This document shows, in pieces, positions 1 to 34,964 of a DNA stretch of 35,708 nt. How positions within the stretch are numbered: position 1 is the first letter of the stretch; every line of letters begins with the position of its first letter. Source of the stretch: a virus (taxonomy: Duplodnaviria > Caudoviricetes); the IMG/VR virus record IMGVR_UViG_3300020042_004433, positions 1 to 35,708 of that record; one strand, written 5' to 3'. The position numbers and the translations under genes were made by a program. The notes under the pieces are model-generated. The model was not told where the DNA came from. It searched no databases and worked only from the letters and a program-made list of their open reading frames with translations.

Positions 1-213
1 TATTCCGCCTCTAGCGCCTTTGCCTGATTTAACATGGACATACTTAACCATCCATCTTCTACTAAACCAAGCAGTTTTAAGCAGAGCATTTACATACTCT
101 TGGCAACTTGGAATAGAACCATTTAAGTATTTGGCATACTTATCTGATTGGCTTTTGCGAATTACAGACTCGGCTTTATACAACCTCGTCCTTTGATTAT
201 CTCTATCTCTCAC
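1..213 (-). CDS. N-terminal part of a hypothetical protein resembling the actinobacterial TIGR04338-type putative metallohydrolase; runs off the window edge
   Basis: Not in the ORF track. My translation from GTG at 213 is MRDRDNQRTRLYKAESVIRK...QEYVNALLKTAWFSRRW..., open to base 1. The RDxQRxRxYxAE start is typical of that family. The HExxH motif would lie outside the window. Confidence 0.55.
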   Translation of the reverse strand, partial: MRDRDNQRTRLYKAESVIRKSQSDKYAKYLNGSIPSCQEYVNALLKTAWFSRRWMVKYVHVKSGKGARGGI

Positions 214-661
214 TTTCAACCTTTCCTCGATTCTTTTGGAAGGCTAGATAAGCCTCAATTGATTGGCCTTGAGGTCTGCGCAGGTCGTAATAAACCCAAC
301 CTTTGCTTACTTCATATAGATAGCCATATTGGGCTGAAGTATTATTCGTAGCGTCTCTTAACCAAAGATAAGTAGAAGCAAAAACCCTAGGCGGGTTGAA
401 CTCTTCTCCTTTATCTCGGTGGTAGGCAGAAGTAAAGTCATACACTTCGTCAGTATCTATTACCTCTTTAGGGGCGTTATGCACCTCAGGACCTAGGAAA
501 GAAATATCTCCTAAGTTAATTAACATATCTACTTTATTGGTATCTGCGTAGTGCTCAATTAAAACTGCACCAGCATGCTTTGGATATCCGTCTGAGTGAA
601 GACCAATAGACTTTATATGACCTGACGGGAACTGCATTCCTATAACCGCATTTGTACTCAT
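203..661 (-). CDS. conserved phage hypothetical protein (MST..IG...H.DGYP...G..L..HY family)
   Basis: 152-aa ORF with an HSDGYP motif and a GGAG SD upstream. Confidence 0.75.
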   Translation of the reverse strand: MSTNAVIGMQFPSGHIKSIGLHSDGYPKHAGAVLIEHYADTNKVDMLINLGDISFLGPEVHNAPKEVIDTDEVYDFTSAYHRDKGEEFNPPRVFASTYLWLRDATNNTSAQYGYLYEVSKGWVYYDLRRPQGQSIEAYLAFQKNRGKVESER

Positions 662-692
662 TTATTTCTCCGTTTCCTTTGGTTAGTTAAAT

Positions 693-719
693 TGAGCCTT
701 TTCCAGTCATGCTCAGGAC
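693..719 (-). ncRNA. small H-type pseudoknot-like intergenic RNA element
   Basis: Minus strand reads GUC-CUGAGCAU-GAC-UGGAAAAG-GCUCA. P1 is GUC/GAC, and loop UGAGC is complementary to the downstream GCUCA across an A-rich linker. Confidence 0.45.
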
Positions 720-724
720 ATTTA

Positions 725-1015
725 TTATTTACCTAGTCGAGTTTGGAACTCTTTAGGAACTTTCTTAATACATTCACTTCCAACTGCCCACCAGCCCATA
801 TAGCCAGCGGGATCTCTTTTTATTTCTTTTTCATTATCTTTAGGGTGGATTATTTTATAGCCACCATCGCCAACTATTACGCCAAGGCCTTTATTTTGTT
901 GGCTTGTTACTTTGCCGCAAACGGTGCACCTTTCACCTTCTAGGTGCTCCTTGGCTCGGTATTTTTCACTCCACAAGTCAATAATGGAGGCCTCTATCTT
1001 TCTTACTTGGTCCAT
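725..1015 (-). CDS. hypothetical protein with CxxC...GSEC motif (possible Zn binding)
   Basis: 96-aa ORF containing CTVC and WAVGSEC, preceded by a GAGG SD. Confidence 0.7.
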   Translation of the reverse strand: MDQVRKIEASIIDLWSEKYRAKEHLEGERCTVCGKVTSQQNKGLGVIVGDGGYKIIHPKDNEKEIKRDPAGYMGWWAVGSECIKKVPKEFQTRLGK

Positions 1016-1221
1016 GCTTCCACCTCTCGATTGGCTTTACTTAATGCCACGCCCAATTGCGTGGTCAATTTACGGCATTGGATACAACCGCAAGCATCGT
1101 TCATTGCGTTAATGATGTTGTAATAATCTTCAACATCAATCTCGATATTTAAGGTGTAGCGGTCATTACGATATCTTTTAATCTTTGGAGCCCTTATTGC
1201 ACCTGTATCTTTATCTAGCAT
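1003..1221 (-). CDS. hypothetical protein, 72 aa (start revised to ATG at 1221)
   Basis: ATG at 1221 is part of AAGGAGACGGAAATG, identical to the start region of the gene at 1714. The track's longer N-terminus would run through the hammerhead. Contains CGCIQC. Confidence 0.65.
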   Translation of the reverse strand: MLDKDTGAIRAPKIKRYRNDRYTLNIEIDVEDYYNIINAMNDACGCIQCRKLTTQLGVALSKANREVEAWTK

Positions 1222-1234
1222 TTCCGTCTCCTTT

Positions 1235-1297
1235 GGTCTCTTCGGTAGCCGATTAACGGCTAGACCGCCTTGCGGCGGTTTCGACCTTTTAGTCAAT
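1235..1297 (-). ncRNA. type II hammerhead ribozyme (U4C core variant)
   Basis: Minus strand: GGUC-GAAAC-CGCC(GCAA)GGCG-GUC^-UAGCCG(UUAAU)CGGCUA-CCGAAGA-GACC. All three stems form; the core is GAAAC/GUC with CCGAAGA in place of CUGANGA. GUUAAU (loop I plus the closing G) can pair with upstream AUUGAC (1297-1292). Confidence 0.8.
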
Positions 1298-1714
1298 TAA
1301 CTCAGAAACTATAGTTAATTTTTTATTAAAGCCTTCAATAACTTGTAAGGCTCGAATCGGCAACTTAAAATCTTTCTTCGTTGCACTATTCTTAGCAATT
1401 ACAGGATAATTGCCTCGGCTCGTTACGCCTAAGAAAATAAATTTCTTGCCGTTCCAAGCGAAAGTAGTGCCTAAGGCTTCGTTTGGATTCTCAAAGCCGT
1501 AAGTTCTTCCTAGCATCCGCCACATTTGGGCTTGAGGCGTTTCAACATTGACTCCGTTTTGGATAGTCACTTCACTTGCTTGGACTTTGAAAGCATATGA
1601 ATCTCCATAAGTAGTACTTACTTTGATTTTTTCTAAGTTATGCTTCTTCAAGATAGCGTCAACGGCTATTTGTATCTCTTCTGTTACTTGGCGGGCTTTA
1701 TCTTTTGTTATCAT
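1289..1714 (-). CDS. hypothetical phage protein
   Basis: 141-aa ORF with a strong AAGGAG SD. Confidence 0.75.
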   Translation of the reverse strand: MITKDKARQVTEEIQIAVDAILKKHNLEKIKVSTTYGDSYAFKVQASEVTIQNGVNVETPQAQMWRMLGRTYGFENPNEALGTTFAWNGKKFIFLGVTSRGNYPVIAKNSATKKDFKLPIRALQVIEGFNKKLTIVSELID

Positions 1715-1729
1715 TTCCGTCTCCTTAGT

Positions 1730-2336
1730 TCGAATTGATTACCATTTAGGCAACCAGCACGATATTCGATCTCATAAATCAAATACCGCACAAGTCGTCT
1801 AACTTTAGAATTATTCGCCATACTCTCGTCACTTTTATTAACGTTGCGCTAACTTAGTAATTATCACTCGCTCGGCCTCATTGCTCACCTCGTAAGGGTC
1901 ATCGCAAGTATTGGATTATCGTCATCGCGTTACTAAGTACGGCCTCTATATCTGAGGCGGGCGTCGCTTTATTTTGTGGAGTAATTAGGGTTCTTAATTG
2001 TTACTCATTTCAGATACCTTGGCTAGGCAATCGGCCTAAGGATTTAATAACCTAATTTGGCTACATAATCTCTACTATTTAATTACGTACCTATTCGTCG
2101 TAACTCACCTTAGGTCCTCATCGAGGATGGACTTTCGTCCTATACCTAAGTTCACGTCCGTCTCGGAACTTACGCTTGGCTTTTTTCACTGATTGCCTTC
2201 GCCTTTTAGGCTAATGCCTCGCCGTGTTGCCATAGCCAAGTTTATTGGCTGTTTGACTTAAGTTCCACCACCAATATGGCAACGAGATACAATGGTTCTA
2301 CAGCCATATATCTATTGCCTATGCAGAACCCTCGTT
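1730..2336 (-). ncRNA. candidate large structured non-coding RNA (~600 nt; boundaries approximate)
   Basis: No long credible ORF in an otherwise gene-dense genome. Contains many nested helices, a GAAA tetraloop, a UACG loop and two k-turn-like motifs that read correctly on the minus strand (see findings). Confidence 0.6.
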
Positions 2337-2337
2337 C

Positions 2338-2706
2338 TCACAGTTTCTCTGCTGGTGCTCTTTCCGAGGCCTCTTTATGTATCTTGGCTAGAAGTTCAGC
2401 CTTACCTTTTTCAATTACGGCTCTCATTTCAGGCGTTAATTCTTTTCTTTGATTTAATATTTGCTCAAACCATTGCTGATCTTTATTTCTTTCGCTAAAG
2501 GTTCGCCAAGGGCTATTAAAGTCTGCTGGCATAACTGGTTTAGTATTATTAGCGTAATGCCTAATCATAAGTAAGCGGGCAAACTCTAAAGTCATATCGC
2601 TATCTAAAATAGCCGCCCATGCTTCTACTCTTGCTTCATCAGGGTCAAATCTATCATCGACAGAAGCGATACCTGTTAAGAGTATTGCTACTTCCTGCTT
2701 GTTCAT
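2338..2706 (-). CDS. replicative helicase loader/inhibitor, G39P-like
   Basis: Pattern MNKQEVAILL...D.RF...VEAWAAILD...HY....VMPADF; lies downstream of the replication initiator. Confidence 0.65.
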   Translation of the reverse strand: MNKQEVAILLTGIASVDDRFDPDEARVEAWAAILDSDMTLEFARLLMIRHYANNTKPVMPADFNSPWRTFSERNKDQQWFEQILNQRKELTPEMRAVIEKGKAELLAKIHKEASERAPAEKL

Positions 2707-2849
2707 ACTTTCTCCTTTAATTTATAGCCAACGATATTCCAAACGCTTCCCAAAATAGCGTCTTGCCACCGCCCGCAATACTCACAGGAATAATCTTCAC
2801 AAGCAGTAGAAAGAACTAGTCCTTGTAATTTACAGTACCTGCATTTCAT
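2703..2849 (-). CDS. small Zn-ribbon protein, 48 aa
   Basis: Not in the track. MKCRYCKLQGLVLSTACEDYSCEYCGRWQD...; two CxxC pairs and ATGA overlaps with both neighbours. Confidence 0.65.
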   Translation of the reverse strand: MKCRYCKLQGLVLSTACEDYSCEYCGRWQDAILGSVWNIVGYKLKEKV

Positions 2850-3049
2850 TTTAGGTTGCCAATCCAAATTAACATCTCGCCTAGTTCTATAAGTTCTTTC
2901 TTGCTAATGTAATCAAGCGAGGCTTTTTCATTAGTAAAATCAACATTGATAGTTACTGACCAATCACCCGCTTCGCCTGACCCAGTAGAAACTTCTACGT
3001 TGCCCGAGTTCAGTCCATACCATTTATAGATTATTTCATTTGCTTTCAT
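2846..3049 (-). CDS. hypothetical protein
   Basis: 67-aa ORF in the operon, AAGGGA SD. Confidence 0.6.
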   Translation of the reverse strand: MKANEIIYKWYGLNSGNVEVSTGSGEAGDWSVTINVDFTNEKASLDYISKKELIELGEMLIWIGNLK

Positions 3050-3059
3050 TTGTCCCTTT

Positions 3060-3755
3060 CTACTCTAGTTCCCATATTGGGTTCTTATTTTGATTTAACG
3101 CAACTACGTTACTAAGCCCTCGGTTGAGTCTTTCTTGTCGGGCCGACATAGGTCTTATATTTCTTAGTGCTTTGTCCATTTGTTGCATAGATGGAACTAC
3201 TCCTATCTGATTTAAGGCAGTTAGGATTTGTTCCTCGGTATAGCCTCTAGCCTCAGCCGCTTCGCAGACTTTTAATAAGGCGAACCAAGCACCTTTTCCA
3301 ATTGGCTTAGGGGTAAGCCCCTCCCACCATTTCTGTGCGGCTACTTTTGACGGCTTGACCGTGTCTAGGGTTGTATCTTTTAAGGTTGTATAAGATGGTT
3401 GCTCCGAGTCAAAGTTGGGGAGTAATGGTCCAAAGTTGTGGAGTTCAACATCTATAGTTGGGGGGTCGTCATTCTGCACCCCAACTGTATTGGGGAGTTT
3501 AAGTAAGCGGTATTCAGTTGCTCTTCCTTTACTATGGCCTTTTTTAACTATTTCTACAGAACAATCACTTATCATCTTTGCTACTGTTTGCCTTACATAT
3601 TCTACCGAGCACCTACTTTTCTTAGCCAACGAACTTTGGCTGATAAAAAACCAACCAGTTTCGTTAGCATGGTCAGCCATTCCTAAATGAATAAGCAATC
3701 GGGCACCGTCATATGGGCTTTTATCCCATACATGGGTCATCCACCTAATGCTCAC
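3060..3755 (-). CDS. phage replication initiator (N-terminal winged HTH, HTH_36-like)
   Basis: MSIRWMTHVW...LLIHLGMADHANETG..F.SQSSLAKKSRCS is the typical replisome-organiser N-terminus. Confidence 0.75.
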   Translation of the reverse strand: MSIRWMTHVWDKSPYDGARLLIHLGMADHANETGWFFISQSSLAKKSRCSVEYVRQTVAKMISDCSVEIVKKGHSKGRATEYRLLKLPNTVGVQNDDPPTIDVELHNFGPLLPNFDSEQPSYTTLKDTTLDTVKPSKVAAQKWWEGLTPKPIGKGAWFALLKVCEAAEARGYTEEQILTALNQIGVVPSMQQMDKALRNIRPMSARQERLNRGLSNVVALNQNKNPIWELE

Positions 3756-4144
3756 AAATTACCTCCACAATGCGGGCAACATTTAATCTTTGGCTTTTGG
3801 TATTCAACTGCCCTGCCATTTACATAATTAGGCAAAACATAAATCTTGCAGCCATTTCGTTTATCTTTCAATCGCGAAATATAGCCTGTTTTATGGAGGA
3901 TACTTAACACGCCTGAAACTGTGCCATGGTGGAGTTCTAACATATCTGACAATTCACGCCAAATAACCCCTCGACCCCTTTGAAGTTCTAGCCAAGTAAT
4001 TACTTTGCGCTCTAATGCCGCCGTCATTCCTTTTATATCTTGATTGATTGCTCGCTCTTTACTTGTGTCTGTTCCGCTATGCCCTGAAGTTCCAGCGTAT
4101 GGCAGTACAGGCAGTCCGTCATCAAATAAATCCGCTTGTCCCAT
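3752..4144 (-). CDS. winged-HTH DNA-binding protein with C-terminal CxxC
   Basis: PYAGTSGHSGTDTS..RA motif, WRELSDMLELHHGTVSGVLS helix-turn-helix, and CPHCG. Confidence 0.65.
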   Translation of the reverse strand: MGQADLFDDGLPVLPYAGTSGHSGTDTSKERAINQDIKGMTAALERKVITWLELQRGRGVIWRELSDMLELHHGTVSGVLSILHKTGYISRLKDKRNGCKIYVLPNYVNGRAVEYQKPKIKCCPHCGGNL

Positions 4145-4152
4145 TTCCGTTC

Positions 4153-4359
4153 CTATTCTTTAACTAGTTTTTGTGGTTCTACTCCTAAAATCTCGGCTAA
4201 CTTGATAATGGTAGAAAACTTGGCTGGCTTGCCCTTTTCTAACCGACAAAGACTTTCCGCCCTAATACCAGCCCTCTTTGCGAGTTCGCTCTGGGTAATT
4301 AGTTTGCCTTTGCGTAACTGTTTTATCAGTTCCCCATTAACTACTGCTGTTGCCGACAT
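4153..4359 (-). CDS. XRE-family HTH transcriptional regulator (Cro-like)
   Basis: IKQLRKGKLITQSELAKRAGI...LCRLEKG...TIIKLAEILGV; AAGGAG SD. Confidence 0.85.
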   Translation of the reverse strand: MSATAVVNGELIKQLRKGKLITQSELAKRAGIRAESLCRLEKGKPAKFSTIIKLAEILGVEPQKLVKE

Positions 4360-4584
4360 AATTCTCCTTACTTGTGATGGAATTGTAATAGCCTTTAGAT
4401 GGCGAACCCTAGCATTGAATAACTACGGCATTTCCATAGTTATATGTCTAGGAACTTAAGCGCCATTTAATTTGATAACATAAGCCTATCCTGCGCTATC
4501 CCGTCATAGACGCAGGGCTAAGAGCGAGATTGTGTGCCTCTCAATCCCAGAGTAAGGGCCTGCTCGCTCTTGGTTTTTAAGATA

Positions 4585-4647
4585 GACACGCCCTTTACAT
4601 GTTGCTTAAATGGACTTGACTTGCCATACTTATTCTCTAGAAGGAGG
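4585..4647 (+). promoter_or_regulatory. sigma-70-type promoter and RBS for the only credible plus-strand gene, with an upstream GACAC box
   Basis: TTGCTT (4602-4607), 17-nt spacer, TGc-CATACT (-10 at 4625-4630), AGGAGG (4642-4647), GACAC at 4585-4589. Confidence 0.55.
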
Positions 4648-4651
4648 CAAA

Positions 4652-4828
4652 ATGACCCCAACTAATAAAGTTGAGTTTGTTCACGACTGCCTAGCGCAGT
4701 TGTCTAAAATCGATGAACAAATTTACCTACTAGACCCTGCTATTCATAAAGATCTAATCGCCTGTTTGCGAGAAGAAGCCTTACGGATACAGTTGAGCGC
4801 AGATAAAGAATTAACGCTAGTTAGTTAA
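4652..4828 (+). CDS. small helical hypothetical protein, 58 aa
   Basis: ATG at 4652 follows AGGAGG; translation MTPTNKVEFVHDCLAQLSKIDEQ... Confidence 0.6.
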   Translation: MTPTNKVEFVHDCLAQLSKIDEQIYLLDPAIHKDLIACLREEALRIQLSADKELTLVS

Positions 4829-5336
4829 ACTTAGGTCTGCCAAAGCCAACAACGGCAACAGGCATATTAGGTTTAAGTTTACTGCGGTTCTTCTTTTTGA
4901 ACGCTCTAATTTTTAAGCAAACTTCGCCGCCGTTTCTTTGGTCGCCTTTTTTGTCGGCAGCCGTATTGCCCTCTATGCAGGTAATAGTTCCATCTCCGTT
5001 GTCTTTTTGAACTATTCCGACATGTGAGATTCTATCGACCCCATCTCCAGGAAAGTCAAAGAAAACAATATCGCCTGCTAAAGGCAATGAATCTTCTCCT
5101 TCAAACCAAGTTTTGTTTTTCTTAAATGCTTCTGCCCCTGCTAAGGTTGATACGCAATTTGGAACTTTCACCCCTGCTTGGTTAGCGCACCACATAATAA
5201 ATGAACCGCACCATGGCAATAAATTTGCTTTAGCAAACTTGCCGTATTTAGTTTCGTTATCTTTAGGACCTTCTATAGTTCCTACTTCGGCCAAAGCAAT
5301 TTCGACCAGTTTGGCTGCTGTATTTAACTCTGCCAT
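4821..5336 (-). CDS. endolysin, CHAP-domain amidase/peptidase
   Basis: Catalytic WCGSF, HVGIV and IEGNT motifs. Confidence 0.9.
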   Translation of the reverse strand: MAELNTAAKLVEIALAEVGTIEGPKDNETKYGKFAKANLLPWCGSFIMWCANQAGVKVPNCVSTLAGAEAFKKNKTWFEGEDSLPLAGDIVFFDFPGDGVDRISHVGIVQKDNGDGTITCIEGNTAADKKGDQRNGGEVCLKIRAFKKKNRSKLKPNMPVAVVGFGRPKFN

Positions 5337-5479
5337 TATTTCATTCCTTTGTTTTGGTCTTTAGGATATCTTTCTATTCTTTCTTTTATCCTACCATCTT
5401 TGCCCATTCGTACTATCCAACCATCTTTTATCTGCATAGGATTAAAACTATCTACTCTCCTGTACCTACCACTGCTCAT
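5336..5479 (-). CDS. small basic hypothetical protein, 47 aa
   Basis: Not in the track. MSSGRYRRVDSFNPMQIKDGWIVRMGKDGRIKE...; ATGA and TAATG couplings at its two ends. Confidence 0.65.
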   Translation of the reverse strand: MSSGRYRRVDSFNPMQIKDGWIVRMGKDGRIKERIERYPKDQNKGMK

Positions 5480-5574
5480 ATTGACACCCAACCTAAATAC
5501 TCTGCGTTTGGGTTATCTTTCAACCATTGTTCTCTTAACTTGTTTTGGTATGCCCAGTCGATATCGTTACTCAT
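5476..5574 (-). CDS. small hypothetical protein, 32 aa
   Basis: Not in the track. MSNDIDWAYQNKLREQWLKDNPNAEYLGWVSI; ATGA-coupled to the next gene. Confidence 0.55.
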   Translation of the reverse strand: MSNDIDWAYQNKLREQWLKDNPNAEYLGWVSI

Positions 5575-5599
5575 TATTTCTTTTCTTACAAGTAACTAA

Positions 5600-5896
5600 T
5601 TACTTACCTTTTCGGGCTGAAGTCTTTGCGTCTACTTCAGAAAATGCCTCGTTAATCTCAGCGCTTGATAATTTTCCATCTACTAAGAAAGATCGAGCAA
5701 GTTGTTCGGTAACAGTAACTACTCCTAAAGTGCCCGCTAAAATAACGGCTTTAACGATATCAATGCCGATAATCGCGCCTGCGCCAATTACTGATAGTCC
5801 GCTTGCTAAAAAAACCGCGAAAATTCGTTTGGCTATCCCTATTATCTTTTCCATAAAAGTATTGCCCTTCAGTTCAGTTTTACCAGTACCTACCAT
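5600..5896 (-). CDS. holin-like membrane protein (2 TM); start at 5896, alternative 5854
   Basis: Hydrophobic RIFAVFLASGLSVIGAGAIIG / VKAVILAGTLGVV followed by DGKLS..EIN.AF; located in the lysis region; GGAG precedes ATG 5896. Confidence 0.6.
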   Translation of the reverse strand: MVGTGKTELKGNTFMEKIIGIAKRIFAVFLASGLSVIGAGAIIGIDIVKAVILAGTLGVVTVTEQLARSFLVDGKLSSAEINEAFSEVDAKTSARKGK

Positions 5897-5897
5897 C

Positions 5898-6455
5898 TTA
5901 CTTTCTCCCCTTTGCTTTTCGTTGTTGGGGCTGAGTATAGTAAAGAAAAGGTCCGCTTGTGTAAGCATCGTTCTTAGCCGCAATTTCTAACGCTTCAGAT
6001 AGGCTCGCCCCTGCTTCTAACGCTCCAATGGCATAACCGCTTCCTGAACCAACTCCAAAATAACCGCTATCAGTTAAAGAGATACTCATATCATCTGCTA
6101 TCTCGAAAACTTGCCCTCCAATGGCAACTAAGAAGCAAAATTTGCTTTCGTCGTCGTCTACGTCCCATTTGTATTCGTTTTCCTTAAAAACTGCTTTTAG
6201 AGAAGGAATAACTTTCGCTATCATAAAATGGTAGAGGTCTTTCCATTCTGCATTGCTTGGCCTAGGCGGTTGCCAAATATGTTGCGCAATATCGCAAGGG
6301 GCGCACTCTCCGCTTCCTGCAATAATAAAAGGACCGCGCTCGCTTATTTTTATCATTTCTGTATGTCTTTGTACTCGCCCGCTACCTGAAGTTACTTGAC
6401 TATCTGCCCCAAATAAAACTTTACCTTTTTGTTGGATAGCGATAATCGTGGTCAT
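5898..6455 (-). CDS. HslV/proteasome beta-subunit-like Ntn hydrolase (Thr protease)
   Basis: MTTIIAI...ADSQVT, conserved Lys, and GSGSGYAIGAL; an N-terminal Thr nucleophile is exposed after Met removal. Confidence 0.85.
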   Translation of the reverse strand: MTTIIAIQQKGKVLFGADSQVTSGSGRVQRHTEMIKISERGPFIIAGSGECAPCDIAQHIWQPPRPSNAEWKDLYHFMIAKVIPSLKAVFKENEYKWDVDDDESKFCFLVAIGGQVFEIADDMSISLTDSGYFGVGSGSGYAIGALEAGASLSEALEIAAKNDAYTSGPFLYYTQPQQRKAKGRK

Positions 6456-6468
6456 GGGGATAAGGGTA
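6456..6468 (-). promoter_or_regulatory. putative leaderless promoter (-10 TACCCT, 7 nt before ATG)
   Basis: No SD; TANNNT at a spacing that puts +1 on the ATG; sits right after a terminator. Confidence 0.5.
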
Positions 6469-6478
6469 CAAGCCTGCT

Positions 6479-6519
6479 AAAAGAAATAGGCTAGGCGACA
6501 TCAGATAGAGCGCCTAGCC
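6479..6519 (-). terminator. intrinsic terminator after the holin
   Basis: GGCTAGGCG...CGCCTAGCC stem followed by TATTTCTTTT on the minus strand. Confidence 0.65.
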
Positions 6520-6530
6520 GAGTTGAAACT

Positions 6531-6821
6531 TTATTTCTTGACGGCCTTTTTACTTGGACTTGACTTAGAGTTTATCTTCTTCGTGAACTCTTTAACGGCT
6601 GATTCCGCAAACTTTCCAAATGCTGGATCTTTGCTATTAAAATATCTCATAGCAACAGGAACGATAGCCACCCATACAGAGTTGGCTACGGCCCACCAAT
6701 CGCCTGAAGCAAAATCTATCGGGGATTTGCCTGTAAGCGCTCCAATTGCCGCCACAGCCGCTATAACAGCCCCTAGGAGGTGTCTGCCGTAACTATCTAT
6801 TGCTGCTTTATTTAATTTCAT
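6531..6821 (-). CDS. holin (actinophage type)
   Basis: SYGRHLLGAVIAAVAA...VANSVWVAIVPVAMRYFNSKDPAFG; 2 TM segments and a basic C-terminus. Confidence 0.7.
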   Translation of the reverse strand: MKLNKAAIDSYGRHLLGAVIAAVAAIGALTGKSPIDFASGDWWAVANSVWVAIVPVAMRYFNSKDPAFGKFAESAVKEFTKKINSKSSPSKKAVKK

Positions 6822-6823
6822 TT

Positions 6824-7108
6824 TTACTCCTTAGTGGCAATCAATTTTACTAGGTCGTAAACATCATCGAGCCTTTGCCCAATGCCTGACTGCCGTTCTT
6901 CTAATCTTACTATACGGTCTGCTACCGATGAGCCACCATTGGGCTTGAGTTCCATAAGGACATCTTCAATAGGGCGTAGTCTTTCATCTATAAATACTTC
7001 TAAACTTCTTTTTAGGGGTTTGTATACCAATTTGGCTCCTAGGGCTAATATACCTAAAACTGCCGCACTAATAGCAGCAATTAGTTCTAAGTATTCTTGG
7101 GCAGACAT
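6824..7108 (-). CDS. lysis-region membrane protein (single TM plus coiled coil, PNGGSS motif)
   Basis: N-terminal TM; ELKPNGGSSVADRIVRLE motif common in actinophages; leaderless -10 TATCCT at 7121-7116. Confidence 0.7.
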   Translation of the reverse strand: MSAQEYLELIAAISAAVLGILALGAKLVYKPLKRSLEVFIDERLRPIEDVLMELKPNGGSSVADRIVRLEERQSGIGQRLDDVYDLVKLIATKE

Positions 7109-7145
7109 GCTCTATAGGATACCGCAATATGGTTTAATTTCAGTA

Positions 7146-7382
7146 TCAAGTCAATTCACCTAGCACCACTATGTCGCCATTATTTATTATCATTACTACT
7201 ACATCAGCGACTGTTGGGGTATAAGAACTGAGGTAACGAACTCCTGTTACGGCAGTAGAAGAGCCAGAAATTTCTACACTTATTCTTGTATTGCCACTAG
7301 TCCTAGCCGTTACTACTCCAAAGTGTATAGATAGTTTATTGTTTTGGTTAGCAATACTTTTTACTATTTGAGCGAAATCCAT
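7146..7382 (-). CDS. small tail-tip/baseplate protein (OB-fold-like)
   Basis: YLSSYTPTVADVV...GDIVVLG pattern; follows the hub gene. Confidence 0.6.
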   Translation of the reverse strand: MDFAQIVKSIANQNNKLSIHFGVVTARTSGNTRISVEISGSSTAVTGVRYLSSYTPTVADVVVMIINNGDIVVLGELT

Positions 7383-8530
7383 TAACTTGCCCCTATCAAG
7401 ACTTGCTCTCCAGTTGCAACGACTCTAACAGTTCTAGCGTTAGCCGACATAGTGCCTTGTGGGGTCAAGGGTATGTCAATAGAATCAATGATAACCAATC
7501 TGTCCACTTTACTACCATTAGATTTAACATAAACAACATCTTGGGCATCTAAGGTTGGGTCTACTAAGGACTCCCAGTTTATTACTTCTTGGCTCCCAAC
7601 ATAGATATTCAATAGACTAAGTGCTGCCCTAACCGCTTCGGTTTCAGTTGCAACTAAACTGGTTTCTATAAATACTGGCACTTCGCCAAATATTCCGAAT
7701 CTATAAGTTGGGCTAGCAGGGTCTTCGTCCCAAACTTCAACTCTTATTGGGGTTACTACTTCTGTTCCTTCTATTGTATAAATAACTCCATTATAGGTAG
7801 ATTTAGTTGAGATAGTTCTATTAAGGGAAGTTACCGTAGTGCCACTTCCTTCAATAAAAGTAGCGACTACTATTGAGCCATCTAGGGTTGGAAACTGATT
7901 CATTCTAACTACGCCATTTTGGTCAAAATATAAATCAAATCCAACAAGTTCTGCTATCTCTACTGAGTCTTTCCATGGGTCATTATCCTGTTCAGTTCCA
8001 AGGACTATATTAGTTATACTCACATTGGTAGTAGGAAAGGCAGTCTCAACATCAGGGTATCTATTTTTTAACAGAGCAGTTAAAGAACTCTCTAGGCTTC
8101 CTGCCACCATTTGATAAGGCTCAGTAAACTTCGCTCTTGATACTCGGATAGACCTATCTTCACCTTTTAACTGTATCTTTACACCATCATTTGTATCGCT
8201 GATTGCTACTTCAATTATTACAAATACCCCAAGAGGAACATACTCTTCAGTTCCGTCATAGTATTGAACGCCTCTATAAAGTCTTAGTTCATTACCAAAT
8301 GGAGTCAGTAAATCAAAGTCGCTATCAGGCACTAGGTTGGTTGTTTCTCTATCGGTAATGAGAGTGATATCGCAAGTCCTTCTAACTGCAGAGCGAGCAT
8401 CTACTTGTACTGTGCCTTCAGATATATTTATTTCCTGTAACTTTTGGTCACTTGCCCAAACCTCTGCTTTTGATATAACAACATGGTCAGTAAGGATTGC
8501 CGTTTTCAAGGCAGCACTTGACGAATACAT
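7382..8530 (-). CDS. minor tail protein / tail hub (DUF5047-like)
   Basis: VRRTCDIT...PFGNELRLYRG...VPLGVF...DRS motif; second gene after the tape measure. Confidence 0.75.
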   Translation of the reverse strand: MYSSSAALKTAILTDHVVISKAEVWASDQKLQEINISEGTVQVDARSAVRRTCDITLITDRETTNLVPDSDFDLLTPFGNELRLYRGVQYYDGTEEYVPLGVFVIIEVAISDTNDGVKIQLKGEDRSIRVSRAKFTEPYQMVAGSLESSLTALLKNRYPDVETAFPTTNVSITNIVLGTEQDNDPWKDSVEIAELVGFDLYFDQNGVVRMNQFPTLDGSIVVATFIEGSGTTVTSLNRTISTKSTYNGVIYTIEGTEVVTPIRVEVWDEDPASPTYRFGIFGEVPVFIETSLVATETEAVRAALSLLNIYVGSQEVINWESLVDPTLDAQDVVYVKSNGSKVDRLVIIDSIDIPLTPQGTMSANARTVRVVATGEQVLIGAS

Positions 8531-28912: not shown

Positions 28913-30433
28913 CTAATCATAACTTAATCCGCCAGCACCAAAAGTTTGAACTCCGCCGCTGTTGCTATTTAAGTACTTTGTTTTATCTTCTGAAGTGATA
29001 CTCTTAAATCTAGCCCCCGTTCCACCTAACGCTCTGCCCATAGAAACAATTGATTCGTGGATAGCCTCTTCTAAATCAACGCCGTTCACTCCGCCAAATT
29101 GGATGCCTTCTTTTACTTGATTTAATGCCGTTTTAGAATTCGAAGACAAGTTATCTATGGCTTCTTTACCGCCCACTTTTTGTGCTGTTCTCAAAAGGCT
29201 TTCAACATCTTTTACTTTTTGCTGCGCGTCTGGGTCTTTGCCTGCAAATTTTTTTGCTCTATTTAAGGAACTTAGAGAATTTTTTATTTCGTCTTTACTA
29301 TTTGGTTTTTTTGAACTTAGGCTTGACGGCGCACTTGACCCGCCCCCACCTCCACCTTTTCTTCCATGTGAGGACTGGTTATGTGAGCCATGTTTAAGTA
29401 AATCAAACTCTGCCGCTTTACCAACAGAATTGTAGTCCTTGCCTGAAAGTAGTTCATCTGATAATTCGTCACAGTCACCTGCAAGATCTCTTAATGTATT
29501 AGCAAAGACACCTAGAGAGGTATTTCTTAATGCTATTGCCCCGTCATCTAGTGCGCTTGACGCTCGTTCTAATGATAGTTGACGATCAGATAACGTAACT
29601 CCTTCATTATCTGCCGCTTCAAGATATTGGATAGCGTCGTCAGCGTTTCCTAATGCCTCTTGACCCGCATCGTAATCTTCTTGCGAAATATCTTCACTTT
29701 CTAAATCTGCCTCTATTCGGTCTTCAAATTCATCACGCTCTTCGCCCAGTTTGGAGTTAATTTCTTGAGTCTTATCCTTGATAGTTTCAGTTTTTTCTCC
29801 GCTGCTAGTCGCAGAGCCGTCGCTGCCGCTGCTTCCACCTCTAGAACCAGCATGGGTTTTTTGGTTATGTGAGCCGTGCTTAAATAAATTAGCCTCTATG
29901 ACTTTCCTGAATACTGTTATATCTTCTTCAGGGTTCCATTCAGCAAATCCGCCTGTGCCTGAACCTCGAGTTTTTAATCCAACTGCTATCTTATCGCCAA
30001 TCATTTTAACTGCATGAACTCTAGTCTTGCCCGCTTTATCCAACCTGTCTCCTACCTTAATATCTTTGGCTGATATTTTCGCGGCAGTAAAGGACTTGCT
30101 CTCGGAATTTTGGGCACCGCCACCCTTGCCATGAGAACTCTGATTATGTGAAGCGTGTTTTAATAACTGCTCATCTAAAGATTTAGTTAGGCTAGACATT
30201 TTATGGCCGACTTGAATATCTGTTTCTTTACCATCTCGATATAACTGAATTAGTACGGCAGGATTATCTTTTTCGCCTTTAATCTTAAACTTAACATTTG
30301 GAATATCTAAAGTGCCGTAATCCATTACATGAATAACTTTACCTGTTGCTCTACCGCCTGATGAGTTCCATGAAACCATATCTCCTTCTTTTAAGGACTT
30401 GGCTTTATCTAGTGCGGTGTTATAGAGAAACAT
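28913..30433 (-). CDS. multi-module protein: DUF2945/HVA1-like SH3-Tudor domain plus three KH..HNQ..H-tagged modules
   Basis: LKEGDMVSWNSSGGRATGKV N-terminus; KHASHNQSSHG, KHGSHNQKTHA and KHGSHNQSSHG, each followed by a Gly/Ser linker. Confidence 0.75.
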   Translation of the reverse strand: MFLYNTALDKAKSLKEGDMVSWNSSGGRATGKVIHVMDYGTLDIPNVKFKIKGEKDNPAVLIQLYRDGKETDIQVGHKMSSLTKSLDEQLLKHASHNQSSHGKGGGAQNSESKSFTAAKISAKDIKVGDRLDKAGKTRVHAVKMIGDKIAVGLKTRGSGTGGFAEWNPEEDITVFRKVIEANLFKHGSHNQKTHAGSRGGSSGSDGSATSSGEKTETIKDKTQEINSKLGEERDEFEDRIEADLESEDISQEDYDAGQEALGNADDAIQYLEAADNEGVTLSDRQLSLERASSALDDGAIALRNTSLGVFANTLRDLAGDCDELSDELLSGKDYNSVGKAAEFDLLKHGSHNQSSHGRKGGGGGGSSAPSSLSSKKPNSKDEIKNSLSSLNRAKKFAGKDPDAQQKVKDVESLLRTAQKVGGKEAIDNLSSNSKTALNQVKEGIQFGGVNGVDLEEAIHESIVSMGRALGGTGARFKSITSEDKTKYLNSNSGGVQTFGAGGLSYD

Positions 30434-30981
30434 TAGCCGCTGTATTTTTGTTGTAAGCCCACATAAGTAACCATATAACCAGTAGCAATGTCTGCTGCAT
30501 CCATTGATAATCCGCTAGTTAGTCGACTTAAAACGCCGCGATTAGTCTTATCAATAGTTTTCGACGCCGATAAAATTTTATCCGCCGCTCTATTTAATTT
30601 TTTAATTTTTTCTCCATTATTTTTTATCCCTGCTAATGGCATTAAAGCAGACCTTGCCATCTGTAAATCACCTTGCGCATTACTTAACTTTCTCGCGTCT
30701 ACTAGAGAAGGCGCCCTTGTGGCTTGTCTAGTAACATCTCGGCTAAGGGCGTCTATCTCTTCGATTAAGCCCAGCGCGTCCTTATCAATCGCGTCTGAAA
30801 GTTTGCTGTTAGTGTCAGGATTGGCTTGATTTACACTAGAGTTCGGTTTGGAAGCAGAACCTCCACCTGCTCCGCTACTTCCGCCTCCACCGCTACCTTT
30901 TCTTCCATGGCTGGACTGGTTATGCGAACCATGTTTAAGAACTTCTTCTTCTAAGCCGTGATCGTTAAGAAATATTCCCAT
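30433..30981 (-). CDS. KH..HNQ..H-tagged helical protein
   Basis: VLKHGSHNQSSHGRKG, then a Gly/Ser linker and a helical domain. Confidence 0.7.
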   Translation of the reverse strand: MGIFLNDHGLEEEVLKHGSHNQSSHGRKGSGGGGSSGAGGGSASKPNSSVNQANPDTNSKLSDAIDKDALGLIEEIDALSRDVTRQATRAPSLVDARKLSNAQGDLQMARSALMPLAGIKNNGEKIKKLNRAADKILSASKTIDKTNRGVLSRLTSGLSMDAADIATGYMVTYVGLQQKYSG

Positions 30982-31103
30982 TATTTACGCCTCTTTTTCT
31001 TTAGGAATTTGTATAACAAGATTGGACTCAGATACAGCAACAGAGCAAGCGCACTCGCCCGAACAGCAGGACGATTGCGGTACGAATCCAAGATTTTTCT
31101 CAT
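30981..31103 (-). CDS. small hypothetical protein, 40 aa (an alternative Cys-rich frame spans 30985-31107)
   Basis: MRKILDSYRNRPAVRASALALLLYLSPILLYKFLKKKRRK with ATGA and TAATG coupling; frame choice uncertain. Confidence 0.4.
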   Translation of the reverse strand: MRKILDSYRNRPAVRASALALLLYLSPILLYKFLKKKRRK

Positions 31104-32428
31104 CCATTTTTCTTCTTCCGCTTTGATGGCTTCATTATAGTATCAACATGGACACTATTCACGTCAGGGGAAGATAACTCCACCTTAACTTCTTCAGGCT
31201 CAGGTAAGTCCGCACTTATCCTCTTTGCTTTGCCACCGATTGAATAGCCTCTTAATTTTCCTGCCTTTACTAAGTCCCAAGCCCAGTCTTTCCATTGAAC
31301 TCCCATGAAAACTGTATTGGGTGGATAAGTCACTTGGCTTGTCGTACCATTGGCTTTCATCATAGGAACGCTTAACTCATAAGGGAAAGTCATTACCTCT
31401 AACCACTCACCAGCAACCACATCTCTGTTATGTTGTAAATGGATTCTGCGGTCATTGCTCTTTACATAATCCCAAACAGCAACCTGTAATTCATCAGCAT
31501 CAGTCCATTCAGTATGAGCGTCAATTTGGTTAGGAATGTAAAGCGGTCCTAAGGTAAATTTTCTTTCGTCTGCCTTAATAAAAGGTTCTTCATACTTAAA
31601 AGATTTTTCTACGCCGTTAATAATTCCGCTTACCCAACCTTTAGCAGGATCTCCGCCCCAAGCGTCCCAAGCAACTCTTCCGCCTGAAGGAAAGCCTTTT
31701 TCTCCTTGACTAAAACCTTTGCCTGCTTTATCGCTTTCATGGCGGGCTAAGAAAGAATTCATACGGCGAATAGTTCTTAAACTTACTGGGCGTCTTGCGG
31801 CTAATTGAGCAGCGCGAGCGCGACCAACGCTAGTAAAGCCTCCACCAGCATGTCCTTCTCTAATCCATTCCAATGCTCTTTTAGCAGCACGAGCAACTGA
31901 AGCAGGGGGAGTAAAAGTATCTGAGTCTGCCGCCTTATCTATTTCATCTTCAATAGGTTCTACTAGAGTAGTTACGCCATCTCCAGTTAATCCAAAGGCG
32001 ACTTTATAGTAATCGTACTCACCTTCTTCCCATTGGTCCACATATTTTTCTACTAGCATCTCTTCACCATCAAATAGTTCTTCTAGTTCAATTCCGTCAA
32101 ATACTAACTCAGTATCTAAAACAACTGGCATATTAGATACTTCATCTTTACTAAAATCTAAACCGCGCTTAGTCAATTCGGCTGTAATATAGTGATGTGT
32201 GACTAGCGCGGCTGAATTAAGTTCCTCTTGATTTAACTTCTCATAAAGGCTTAATAGTTTTTCTGCCGTGGCTTTTTCAACCGCGTCAGGAACATTGGCG
32301 TATAAGGCTCTTACATGGGCGGCGGCTTTTGCTTTAGTAGTATGGCAAGCAACCATTTCACCTGTGCTCGGTTTAATTACGGCATAGGCAGAACAGCCTT
32401 CAACATTAGTAGCAACTTTATACGGCAT
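31100..32428 (-). CDS. prohead maturation serine protease, XkdF-like C-terminal domain, with two N-terminal accessory domains
   Basis: FTLGPLYIP...DAH.EW, IHLQH, W.LVK.G.LRGYSIGG; middle G.T.VGRARA.QLA...RM.SF.ARH...G.VAW.AWGG domain; leaderless -10 TAAACT 6 nt upstream. Confidence 0.85.
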   Translation of the reverse strand: MPYKVATNVEGCSAYAVIKPSTGEMVACHTTKAKAAAHVRALYANVPDAVEKATAEKLLSLYEKLNQEELNSAALVTHHYITAELTKRGLDFSKDEVSNMPVVLDTELVFDGIELEELFDGEEMLVEKYVDQWEEGEYDYYKVAFGLTGDGVTTLVEPIEDEIDKAADSDTFTPPASVARAAKRALEWIREGHAGGGFTSVGRARAAQLAARRPVSLRTIRRMNSFLARHESDKAGKGFSQGEKGFPSGGRVAWDAWGGDPAKGWVSGIINGVEKSFKYEEPFIKADERKFTLGPLYIPNQIDAHTEWTDADELQVAVWDYVKSNDRRIHLQHNRDVVAGEWLEVMTFPYELSVPMMKANGTTSQVTYPPNTVFMGVQWKDWAWDLVKAGKLRGYSIGGKAKRISADLPEPEEVKVELSSPDVNSVHVDTIMKPSKRKKKNG

Positions 32429-32437
32429 AGACTTAGT

Positions 32438-32593
32438 TTACCCCTTAACAGGCTTTTTGAAGGCTCCGCGCCTCTCTAACTCTTTCAATGCCTCTAAATT
32501 ATCTCCAGCAGCAAATTCCATTAAATCTTGTTCGCTCGCTGTGGAGAAATTAAACTTAGTGCAGGAACCTAGCGTCACTTTTATTTCTTCCAT
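32438..32593 (-). CDS. small hypothetical protein, 51 aa
   Basis: Not in the track. MEEIKVTLGSCTKFNFSTASEQDLMEFAAGDNLEALKELERRG...; overlaps the end of the peptidase gene and fills the gap. Confidence 0.55.
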   Translation of the reverse strand: MEEIKVTLGSCTKFNFSTASEQDLMEFAAGDNLEALKELERRGAFKKPVKG

Positions 32594-33498
32594 GGCTTAT
32601 CCCATCCAAATCTTTCTGCCATCGCTACTGCTAGAGGATTACCCTCTGCAGGAACATTTCTTTGTTGCGATAAAACATATTGGGCGAACCCTTCAGCAAA
32701 TGCTTCGGCTGGTTCAGATTTGCCATACTCGCTCATCATATTAGTTCCCGCTCTTCCATTGTAATCAGCCTCCACTAGTTTCGTTATTATATTATCGCGC
32801 TCACCAAAGTTTGAACTTTCTAAATTAGGACGATCTAAGGCATGACCCCACTCATGAGTTAAAGTATAAGTCCTGACTCCTACAACGCTTCCCATCCCCA
32901 TGCCTACATTATTTACTGGCCTAGGGAACAAAGCGTCTCCCGCTAGAAGCATTTTATTTCCACCTCGGTCTGTAGCGCCAAACGCGTCTTTATCAGGAGC
33001 AAGTTCTTTAAGTCTTTTATCGCTAATACGCAGGACTAATGACTCTAAAGGGTACTGCGTTTGTAAGTCATCAATGTCTCGCATTAACGACCCTTCATTT
33101 ATTTTCGTCTGATGCTTACTAGGATTGTCGCCAGGTTCTGAAAAGACTACAATTTGGCCATTCTTGTACGCTCTTTCAGGTTTAGCCTTTAAGTATTCTT
33201 CGTCAGTTCTAGCATAATTTTTCTTCCATTCGCTTTTAGGAATTATTCTTTTCTCATATTTACTTTCCGCTAATCGGCACGAGTCGTCAATAAACGCAAC
33301 ATAATCTTTATTACTCATTTCATGCCACTCGCCCTTTTCCCATTTAGGACCCATACCGCCGCCGTGAGTTTTTTGATTGTGACGACCTGCTAAGTGTTTA
33401 GAAATATCGTTTTTGTCTATTAAAGTAATGTGGTCTGCCTTTGCGGTTGGCTTAGTAATTATTATTTCAAAAGCCTCGTCATAACTAAATTTATTCAT
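32581..33498 (-). CDS. zincin metallopeptidase (lethal-factor/MPTase-like) with KH-tag
   Basis: LTHEWGHALD and SEYG...PAEAFAEGF; N-terminal KHLAGRHNQKTHGGG. Confidence 0.8.
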   Translation of the reverse strand: MNKFSYDEAFEIIITKPTAKADHITLIDKNDISKHLAGRHNQKTHGGGMGPKWEKGEWHEMSNKDYVAFIDDSCRLAESKYEKRIIPKSEWKKNYARTDEEYLKAKPERAYKNGQIVVFSEPGDNPSKHQTKINEGSLMRDIDDLQTQYPLESLVLRISDKRLKELAPDKDAFGATDRGGNKMLLAGDALFPRPVNNVGMGMGSVVGVRTYTLTHEWGHALDRPNLESSNFGERDNIITKLVEADYNGRAGTNMMSEYGKSEPAEAFAEGFAQYVLSQQRNVPAEGNPLAVAMAERFGWDKPWKK

Positions 33499-34201
33499 TT
33501 ACTACCCTCATTTCCCATACTTTACCTTCCCTGTTTAATACTTCTAGTTTCGCCATTCTAGGCATTAAAAACTCCAGTTCATGGGCATAAGGGTTTTTTT
33601 GTTTGTCTAATCCAAAAACGCTATTTGGAAACACTCCTTTAGACTGAGGCGGAACTTCTATCTTAAAAATTAACCCTTGTTGCCCTCCCATTTGCAAAGC
33701 AATCATAGGGTCTAAAGTCGTCGAGATAAAGCCTGGGTCTTGAAATACATCGCCTTGCTCGAGTTTCTCGAAAGTCTCTTTTGCTCCACCTTGAAGAGTT
33801 ACCCCTCTGTACACAGTAAAATTACTTTGCGCAACGGGAGCCGCGTCAATTATTTCATCTAAAGCGTCAGCGTCCATTAAATCTTCGTCGTCTGCACTAC
33901 CTGCCCGTAATTTTTTATTTAACTCTATGCCATTTGAGCCCACATAATTTTTTAAGAAAACTTCTCCTTCTATTCCTGTTTGGCTAGCACTTAAAAGATT
34001 GCGCTCGTTCAATAGTTTCTCTTCTTGCTCGTCAGTACTTGGTTCTACGCTTTCTTGCCACTCACCAAGGTCTTGGTAGATTTTGCTTCTACCACCTGCG
34101 TGCGACTGCTGGCTATGGCGACCGGGGGCATGTTTATTTACATTGGCTCGCCTAACTACTTTTAATCCGAGCGCCGAACTATAACCAAATTTATCATTCA
34201 T
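33491..34201 (-). CDS. ADP-ribosyltransferase (VIP2/Alt-like, R-S-E clade) with KH-tag
   Basis: LN..LR, VYRG, GFISTT and HELEFLMPR; N-terminal KHAPGRHSQQSHAGG. Confidence 0.88.
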   Translation of the reverse strand: MNDKFGYSSALGLKVVRRANVNKHAPGRHSQQSHAGGRSKIYQDLGEWQESVEPSTDEQEEKLLNERNLLSASQTGIEGEVFLKNYVGSNGIELNKKLRAGSADDEDLMDADALDEIIDAAPVAQSNFTVYRGVTLQGGAKETFEKLEQGDVFQDPGFISTTLDPMIALQMGGQQGLIFKIEVPPQSKGVFPNSVFGLDKQKNPYAHELEFLMPRMAKLEVLNREGKVWEMRVVNE

Positions 34202-34964
34202 TGACTACCTCCACATCCCAGACTTTACCTTCTTTTCTAAGTAGTTGAAACTTGCTATTGCGGGGTAATAAAAACTCGTACTCGCTATTGAAGGCCCTGC
34301 CTGCATTTGGTAAAGTACTTCTTTTAGCAATGCTGTTCATAAATATACCTTTACTAGTTTTGGGCACGTTAATTCTTAAGACTATTCCTTGACTGCTTAC
34401 GCTATCTTCAAGACCTCCAAAGTGCGCAGCAATCCTAGGGTTCAAAGTAGTTGAAGCGAACGCTCCGTCGCTAAAGACATCTCCTTCTTCTAAATCTCCA
34501 AAAAAACCTTGAGCCGCTTCGGCTTGTTCTCGGTCAGAGTAACTAGTTTTTACTCCGCGGTAAACAATAACGTCTTCACCTAAAGAGGGTGCCATATCAA
34601 AGGCTTCATCAAAGACTCTTACCTCTTGCCGCAGACCTGAGTCTAAGTATCCTTCCCTTAAATGATCGTTTATTGCGTAGCCTGAACCTTGATATTCGGC
34701 AAAGACCGCTACTTGTTCTGGCGTCCATTCCGCCTCTTGGCTTTTTGATATTTTATCTTGTTCTTCTATGGTCGGTTTATTACTTTTATTATCGTACTCA
34801 TACATAAATGTTCCTAAATCTTGATACACGGGACCGAAGTCTTTACTACCTCTGCCACCTGCATGAGATTGTTGGTTATGGCGACCAGGAGCGTGCTTAC
34901 TTAAATCTTTTTTCTCGACTAAAGTAATATGCTCAGCCTTTAATATAAACGCTTGTAGTGCCAT
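34194..34964 (-). CDS. ADP-ribosyltransferase (VIP2/Alt-like) with KH-tag
   Basis: Y..IN..LR, VYRG, AFASTT and SEYEFLLPR; N-terminal KHAPGRHNQQSHAGG. Confidence 0.9.
   Translation of the reverse strand: MALQAFILKAEHITLVEKKDLSKHAPGRHNQQSHAGGRGSKDFGPVYQDLGTFMYEYDNKSNKPTIEEQDKISKSQEAEWTPEQVAVFAEYQGSGYAINDHLREGYLDSGLRQEVRVFDEAFDMAPSLGEDVIVYRGVKTSYSDREQAEAAQGFFGDLEEGDVFSDGAFASTTLNPRIAAHFGGLEDSVSSQGIVLRINVPKTSKGIFMNSIAKRSTLPNAGRAFNSEYEFLLPRNSKFQLLRKEGKVWDVEVVNE

Follow-up and report, generated by a model that had tools for sequence, protein, structure and literature searches.

The question raised by this locus is what fills a gap of about 620 nt left between two genes of a tailed phage. The window, that is, the whole stretch of DNA under analysis, is a 35.7 kb piece of such a phage; the nearest cultured relatives of its capsid protein belong to Arthrobacter and Microbacterium phages (50-57%), and we infer an actinobacterial host. 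The gap is flanked by a helicase-loader-like gene and a gene for 141 aa, both on the minus strand. A sequence-only reading of the window had proposed that the gap holds a new large structured phage RNA, and the proposal is supported: homologues covary, no Rfam family matches, and RNA libraries contain the segment. It had also called the segment non-coding, and indeed no ORF of at least 40 aa lies wholly inside the gap on the minus strand, so that it is not a set of reading frames; the longest stop-free minus-strand frame in 1745-2300 measures 34 codons. Overall, this is very probably a real structured RNA family, and its features are collected in Table 1.

Elsewhere in the window, an HslV/proteasome-like peptidase gene (5898-6455) adjoins the endolysin gene, and a repeated HxxxxHxQxxH motif is common to the ORFs of 28913-35707; judged by eye, three to four tandem ORFs at 33491-35707 resemble what we take to be head proteins of the ADP-ribosyltransferase fold.

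Table 1. Positions in the window of the RNA, its parts and the neighbouring elements
Feature	Position	Strand	Basis
O-like initiator gene, precedes the helicase-loader-like gene	3060-3755		PHROG matches
Helicase-loader-like gene, 122 aa, upstream neighbour	2338-2706	-	PHROG matches
Putative -10 hexamer TAAACT (TAAAAT in some relatives)	2239-2244	-	seen by eye in alignment
Structured ncRNA, probable full extent ~490 nt	1745-2232	-	segment conservation, family alignment
Stop position of RNA-library contigs, possible mature 5' end	2213-2215	-	contig ends
5' arm, three-way junction: stem 2150-2144/2115-2109, hairpins 2140-2129 and 2126-2116	2085-2175	-	
Single-stranded linker, AAYUAMAYAG type	2075-2084	-	present in 8/8 members examined
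Proposed long-range closing helix of the middle and 3' domains, 2074-2070/1810-1806	1806-2074	-	
Conserved 3' domain	1821-1983	-	covariation
k-turn pattern: CGC/GCG helix, 3-nt bulge, tandem GA/GA, C-C or C-A next pair	1869-1929	-	
38-nt insertion with second k-turn pattern 1907-1881	1878-1915	-	3/18 members
7-nt bulge AGUGAYN beside the k-turn	1862-1868	-	18/18 members
G-U-rich hairpin, 25 pairs, 3' end of the RNA	1746-1802	-	at the place of the hammerhead in divergent members
First downstream gene, 141 aa, no family, varies between members	1289-1714	-	
Type II hammerhead-like element, U4C-type core, predicted cut 1263	1235-1286	-	pattern search

Relatives and genomic setting

Close loci were gathered through the alignment of 18 of the 22 relatives of the upstream protein, which gave nine metagenome loci. 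In all nine, the segment lies directly downstream of the upstream gene with 83-99% identity, and the RNA is conserved far more than the adjoining gene, whose identity goes down to 69%. The genes flanking the RNA are intact and variable between members, and the first gene on its 3' side differs widely among 16 of them. Cellular genomes gave no relative of the upstream protein, and nearly all sequencing runs that hold the segment carry a freshwater, lake or aquatic label.

As for more distant relatives, 80 phages whose capsid protein is related yielded one record with a diverged copy, L159, in the matching gap, and three pattern scans with motifs shared with L159 led to L165, L171, L202, L218, L223, L231, L244 and L250. 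These eight are matched by profile search at E values of 1e-69 to 3e-16 (four of them were themselves in the profile), and L159, the ninth divergent member, is placed by position. The pattern scans returned mostly noise, with members in 5/38, 3/12 and 9/39 loci of overlapping sets, and two exact-pattern scans found the known close relative only (1/40 and 1/2 loci).

Regarding its distribution, the RNA is an accessory element. Model R1, which scores the window at 141 bits, matches one of 47 records (capsid likeness had been the criterion for 45) and one of the ten capsid relatives that are at least 90% complete. The window capsid protein, in turn, is matched in none of nine member records (seven are fragments), and two divergent members come from 97-100% complete phages of 38-40 kb with no match to it. 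GenBank phages gave no match to the window segment or to two divergent members, and the plasmids searched gave none to the RNA; model R1 found nothing in five of five cultured actinophage genomes, nor in 100 of the at least 120 pattern loci from cellular genomes, over which the profile search reached at best E 0.009 among the matches listed. The short BLAST matches seen in phage records (11 of 25) were attributed to chance.

In six divergent records the RNA is preceded by the lysis region and by a small gene on the opposite strand; small genes and DUF932 follow it in most of the six. The opposite-strand gene, just upstream of the RNA, encodes 69-82 aa (e.g., L372:3949-4158) and had no Pfam match in the two cases scanned. 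Two member phages also carry DNA-modification-like genes (L380:1210-3528 and L373:245-2864), a set composed of a Tet/JBP oxygenase, a TET-associated glycosyltransferase, an FkbM methyltransferase and a UDP-galactopyranose mutase.

This setting bears on whether the segment is a replication origin, a primer RNA or a single-stranded DNA structure that serves the adjacent O/P-like genes, an alternative foreseen in the sequence-only reading. In the window lineage, the RNA does stand directly after the O-like and helicase-loader-like genes; however, in six of six phages whose O/P-like genes are more distant no gap follows these genes, and the divergent members follow lysis-region or HTH genes, away from O/P-like ones, so the segment is not tied to replication genes. 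Three 14-nt direct repeats with 21-22 nt spacing, likely the origin iterons, sit inside the O-like initiator gene (3410-3466), and the G-U pairs, GNRA loops and k-turns of the segment point to RNA. A replication role is therefore largely refuted, and we consider it highly improbable.

Fold, covariation and conserved motifs

The segment had been expected to fold better than shuffled controls, and 1725-2340 as a whole does so, with z of -5.6 for the minus strand and -3.8 for the plus strand (20 shuffles each); the core alone (1800-2234), however, reaches z -2.9, which one of nine control windows elsewhere in the genome equals, so that energy by itself is no proof; covariation supplies it. GNRA-to-GNRA loop swaps and G-U-consistent changes show that the strand is the minus one.

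The 3' domain comprises helix 1978-1976/1832-1830, an A-rich internal loop and helices 1967-1961/1849-1841; in its architecture, a long irregular stem leads to a junction with hairpin 1958-1942, present as first described, and the k-turn arm, and helix 1938-1930/1860-1852, also described earlier, forms nine of nine pairs in the window. Across the 22 pairs of the domain, 96.2% of 319 cells are paired, compared with 20-40% for slid partners. Changes on both sides occur in 12 of the 22 pairs, and none of 500 shuffles was as high; the alignment behind this count, made with MAFFT and left unadjusted, has 15 of the 18 members, seven of its rows are close kin, and relatedness can inflate such a count. 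The helices richest in double changes, 1, 4 and 5, lie outside every search pattern; in the close group alone, RNAalifold found little covariation (6/140 pairs).

A k-turn consists of a canonical helix, a 3-nt bulge and tandem G-A/A-G pairs, and the pattern of the conserved arm, found in 18 of 18 members, agrees with this definition at the sequence level; in the cap beyond it the sequence is free to vary and the pairing is kept. Both k-turns recognized in the single sequence are present as patterns, but the one stressed at the time, at 1907-1881, lies in the insertion confined to the window, L047 and L049, where a short hairpin capped by GNRA stands in most close relatives, and it is the other that is conserved. 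For the 7-nt bulge no partner strand is conserved across lineages, and six members have a possible pseudoknot partner that does not covary. Part of the k-turn and the 7-nt bulge were in the search patterns that found eight of the nine divergent members, and the invariance of three motifs comes in part from this selection.

In the 5' arm, the junction stem forms 7/7 pairs in the window and its GGAC/GUCC and CCUC/GAGG hairpins are present, as the sequence-only reading had it; across close relatives, the stem is paired in 62 of 63 cells and either hairpin in 36 of 36. MAFFT misaligned this arm across lineages. Folded separately, the members have an equivalent capped stem whose sequences differ in most of the 11: the stem bears two hairpins in the window, L049, L051, L218, L223, L250 and L244 and one in L159, L202 and L171, and the fold of L165 departs from the pattern.

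Other helices of that first set need revision. The 8-bp pair 2198-2191/2032-2025 is complete in the window (8/8) but broken at three of its eight positions in L049; 2176-2182/2234-2240 forms just 3/7 pairs as proposed, yet 7/7 in the window and 56/63 across relatives once shifted to 2175-2181; and helix 2148-2171 overlaps the junction stem, so the two cannot both form in full. Hairpin 2281-2336 is not conserved, with 42/54 and 61/81 cells paired in nine close sequences. The set was also incomplete, having missed the 25-pair hairpin 1802-1746, whose top 16 pairs are formed in 144 of 144 cells and in which 4 of the 25 pairs have double changes.

As for the long-range helix, 41 of 45 cells are paired in close relatives, and the comparison of cognate with swapped strands gave p ~0.03 with eight members and 59/720 permutations with six lineages, which hints that it closes the rest of the RNA. 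Two junctions are supported; a search by eye found no pseudoknot conserved across lineages, and neither conserved kissing loops nor an antisense match of more than 13 nt elsewhere in the window was found. The family-derived fold lies above the minimum-energy fold by 10 kcal/mol for the 3' domain and 27 kcal/mol for the full set of core helices, and by 44 kcal/mol when the peripheral helices are added; the energy model does not score k-turns, and in view of this cost the fold may be partly wrong in its 5' and middle sections.

The domains of the RNA are gained or lost as modules: L171 is without the middle domain, and a stem-closed loop of the L244 RNA contains a 76-aa ORF with its own ribosome-binding site (L378:729-959, minus) and no Pfam match. 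In the relatives the RNA measures 319-501 nt, and 695 nt in the one with the inserted ORF.

Ends of the RNA, RNA libraries and hammerheads

Identity over 2232-1745 is 86-100%, and that of the upstream gene 69-100% (eight of the nine close loci aligned; L054, which reads the same as L053, was left out). Over 2340-2297 it is only 57-61% in the four most distant close relatives, a drop that places hairpin 2281-2336 probably outside the RNA. With TANNNT as the -10 consensus, a hexamer of this type at 2244-2239, after a variable spacer, suggests that the RNA starts near 2232; a sigma-70 consensus scan of the window reported no minus-strand promoter. Upstream of the putative -10, the nearly invariant minus-strand block 2256-2296 carries a short inverted repeat, and it may act as an operator or activator site or may extend the RNA at its 5' end.

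Six RNA runs from six studies contain the segment, with 32-44% of sampled words matched; they come perhaps from two campaigns, dated to two years. These runs were chosen by their match to the segment itself. The expected transcript finds support in the contigs that hold the segment, which however give no strand, level or true ends, and come from libraries that may include DNA. Over 1-8000, the contig cover of four runs is 1845-2213, 1801-2214, 1815-2214 and 1816-2214. It ends at 2213 in X15 and at 2214 in X16, X18 and X19, whose contigs carry one additional terminal letter, in keeping with the base of L049 type at 2215; the differences of three runs from the window match L049 at the listed places and in number. 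DNA assemblies L047 and L049 are continuous across 2215, and the stop at 2213-2215 in four studies, 17 nt inside the proposed start at 2232, may faintly hint at the 5' end of the RNA. Bins 802-1602 and 2404-3204 are without contig cover in all four runs, which is not counted as evidence because the runs were picked by the segment and contigs drop rare molecules.

On the 3' side, all nine divergent members have a type II hammerhead pattern with the predicted cut 78-127 nt 3' of the conserved core; no hammerhead occurs upstream of the RNA or on the opposite strand in the 19 stretches examined. Rfam places two of the divergent-member hammerheads above threshold and a third just below it. In the window lineage the 25-pair hairpin stands in this place, and the first hammerhead is found one gene downstream in seven of ten stretches and is absent in three. 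The element of the window lies between two small genes and is the only hammerhead pattern in the 35.7 kb, with none on the other strand; its stems have 5, 6 and 4 pairs and follow the type II order of GAAA, stem III, UH, stem I, core and stem II. Rfam at gathering score does not report it, and relatives have a standard hammerhead core at the matching place. According to the accessible part of PMC3088659, a core with the U4C change is slow in vitro, yet a viroid can use it in vivo, and hammerheads flank phage genes. Among 12 near-complete records, hammerheads were found in two, both RNA-bearing, by a search that is insensitive, as it missed those of a third member. On the minus strand of L380 (G002:C1:22000-41000), five hammerhead patterns run through the small genes after the RNA, one of which Rfam also finds.

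Could the large RNA itself be a ribozyme or an intron-derived element, its unpaired motifs being the catalytic core, with self-trimming at 2216/2215 as an example? Its single-stranded motifs are invariant across distant members, the L244 ORF sits in a peripheral loop as ORFs do in introns, the contig end is sharp in three studies and hammerheads abound nearby. Rfam, however, offers no intron or ribozyme match, no gene is interrupted, no group I/II core in the right order is recognizable by eye, and the bases at 2215-2214 vary; we hold this reading to be quite unlikely. The contigs of the four RNA runs show no joints among the matches listed, with 13 pieces and 8 loose ends beyond these. Group I/II introns were also rejected as such (no Rfam hit, whole flanking genes, no joints in the contigs listed), and so were RNase P, tmRNA, group I/II cores, pistol, twister and hatchet, whose motifs fail on order or pairing. 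Reverse transcriptase was absent from 93 proteins scanned from four member records, a subset of their ORFs.

Rfam 15 includes models of ROOL, GOLLD and OLE. At gathering score the window has no hit to these or to introns, and four hits with E of 10 or less in 1500-2600 are at chance level; at E of 5 or less, eight divergent loci gave no ROOL, GOLLD, OLE, intron or ribozyme match for the large RNA, which fits the earlier impression that no catalogued family corresponds to it. ARAGORN found no tRNA or tmRNA in the window, nor in ten of ten stretches from eight member records, and the tmRNA/tRNA-like candidate, also without an Rfam match, was rejected.

Proposed role and comparison with known systems

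The reading we prefer is that of a released, trans-acting early RNA that binds a host protein, and we give its whole chain a little less than an even chance. The RNA would likely be the first product of an early promoter, with its start near 2232. In the other lineages it would be freed from the early message by hammerhead self-cleavage; in the window lineage, which has no directly following hammerhead, release would depend on a putative nuclease cut at the long hairpin, and the 5' end may be trimmed to ~2215. The RNA would then likely act in trans, binding host proteins during takeover. At a guess, the k-turn arm, the 7-nt bulge, the A-rich loop and the linker would bind a host RNA-binding or transcription factor and sequester it, with the RNA serving as decoy or scaffold and perhaps in multimeric form. 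Several features suggest the action in trans: the cut would separate the RNA from the message, the gene that follows changes between members, inserts are modular and surround surfaces that do not vary, and the Pleft RNA offers a precedent.

The position of the RNA fits a cis-acting antitermination element equally well. The nascent RNA would modify RNA polymerase for read-through of the early operon, as put RNA does, and the hammerhead or hairpin would merely discard it; the RNA always heads a long co-oriented gene run, and its independence from the first downstream gene fits as well. Nonetheless, the new RNA is several times larger than put RNA, tolerates large insertions, an ORF included, and is missing from nine of ten near-complete capsid relatives, and this explanation seems to us unlikely. 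HK022 put RNA, in what is accessible of PMC9378689, acts in cis on RNA polymerase in early transcription; it has the same place as the new RNA, at the start of early transcription, and is small and cis-acting.

Beyond the preferred trans-acting role, a wider proposal, which we hold tentatively and with some reserve, is that of a large phage RNA class with its own tertiary core: a ribozyme-released first product of infection, independent of phage proteins, would act as an inhibitor of host machinery, an RNA-only assembly or a ribozyme, and would have spread between unrelated freshwater phages in a hammerhead-punctuated early cassette. Large structured RNAs of bacteria and phages are rare, and the roles of ROOL, GOLLD and the Pleft RNA are open questions. 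This family offers natural ends set by hammerheads, a minimal member of ~320 nt and insertions that mark dispensable loops, and its fixed place at the start of an early gene run leaves few testable roles; it would link phage hammerheads to the release of ncRNA, beyond the splitting of mRNA. Production in vitro would open the RNA to probing and cryo-EM, and a laboratory actinobacterium could serve as expression host.

No description of the family was found in the literature searched, where most subscription papers were outside reach; the literature compared includes the accessible part of preprint 10.64898/2026.09.22.753630. Six supplementary files of PMC10690425 gave no match, and its candidates of up to 151 nt could include a fragment; a term search of the accessible text of preprint 10.64898/2026.09.15.751765 gave none.

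Regarding known systems, the type II hammerheads (RF02276; PMC3088659, as far as accessible) are of the same kind as those in the 3' flank of the RNA in the nine divergent members and at 1235-1286. They are neighbours of the large RNA and not the RNA itself, and the accessible part of PMC3088659 gives no link between hammerheads and a large upstream RNA.

As for ROOL, the accessible parts of PMC5737381 and PMC12286853 describe a large multi-junction phage RNA with a patchy spread, of the same size class and, like the new family, of unknown function; it has three pseudoknots and is often beside tRNA genes. Unlike ROOL, the new family heads a hammerhead-punctuated early gene run, has no Rfam match and has no tRNA neighbours. 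GOLLD, within the accessible text of PMC12286853 and PMC12990946, is likewise a phage RNA from lakes, whose 3' domain is conserved and whose 5' part varies more; the new RNA has about half its length and another 3' domain, no model match and no tRNA genes nearby, which GOLLD, like ROOL, often has. The likeness to ROOL and GOLLD suspected from the start therefore holds for size and phage setting only, and not for sequence, model match or tRNA neighbours.

Both RNAs form RNA-only cages (PMC12286853, accessible part), and by analogy the new RNA could be such a multimer with a storage or shielding role: it is a large accessory RNA of phages, has several domains and takes up variable inserts in its peripheral loops. 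Its smallest member, however, measures only ~320 nt, no conserved kissing loops or pseudoknot were found, no model matches, and neither the window nor ten stretches of relatives has a tRNA; we deem a cage unlikely.

Finally, the accessible text of PMC5712189 describes how the Pleft early promoter of cluster A mycobacteriophages (L5, D29 and StarStuff) gives rise to a stable, toxic, non-coding RNA of ~500 nt. The new RNA is likewise of ~500 nt, non-coding, ahead of small genes and of unknown function; the Pleft RNA is transcribed first from its early promoter, in a phage of actinobacteria, and so would be the new one. Toxicity and abundance are features of Pleft, and the same part of PMC5712189 gives no covarying fold or hammerhead. 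In the right end of L5, model R1 with filters off had no match, the profile was negative and so were seven of eight motif checks; by these comparisons the new RNA is not homologous to the L5 Pleft region, and the likeness is one of position. In conclusion, the segment apparently represents an undescribed family of a known broad kind, the large structured phage RNAs, with a fold and a genomic logic of its own.
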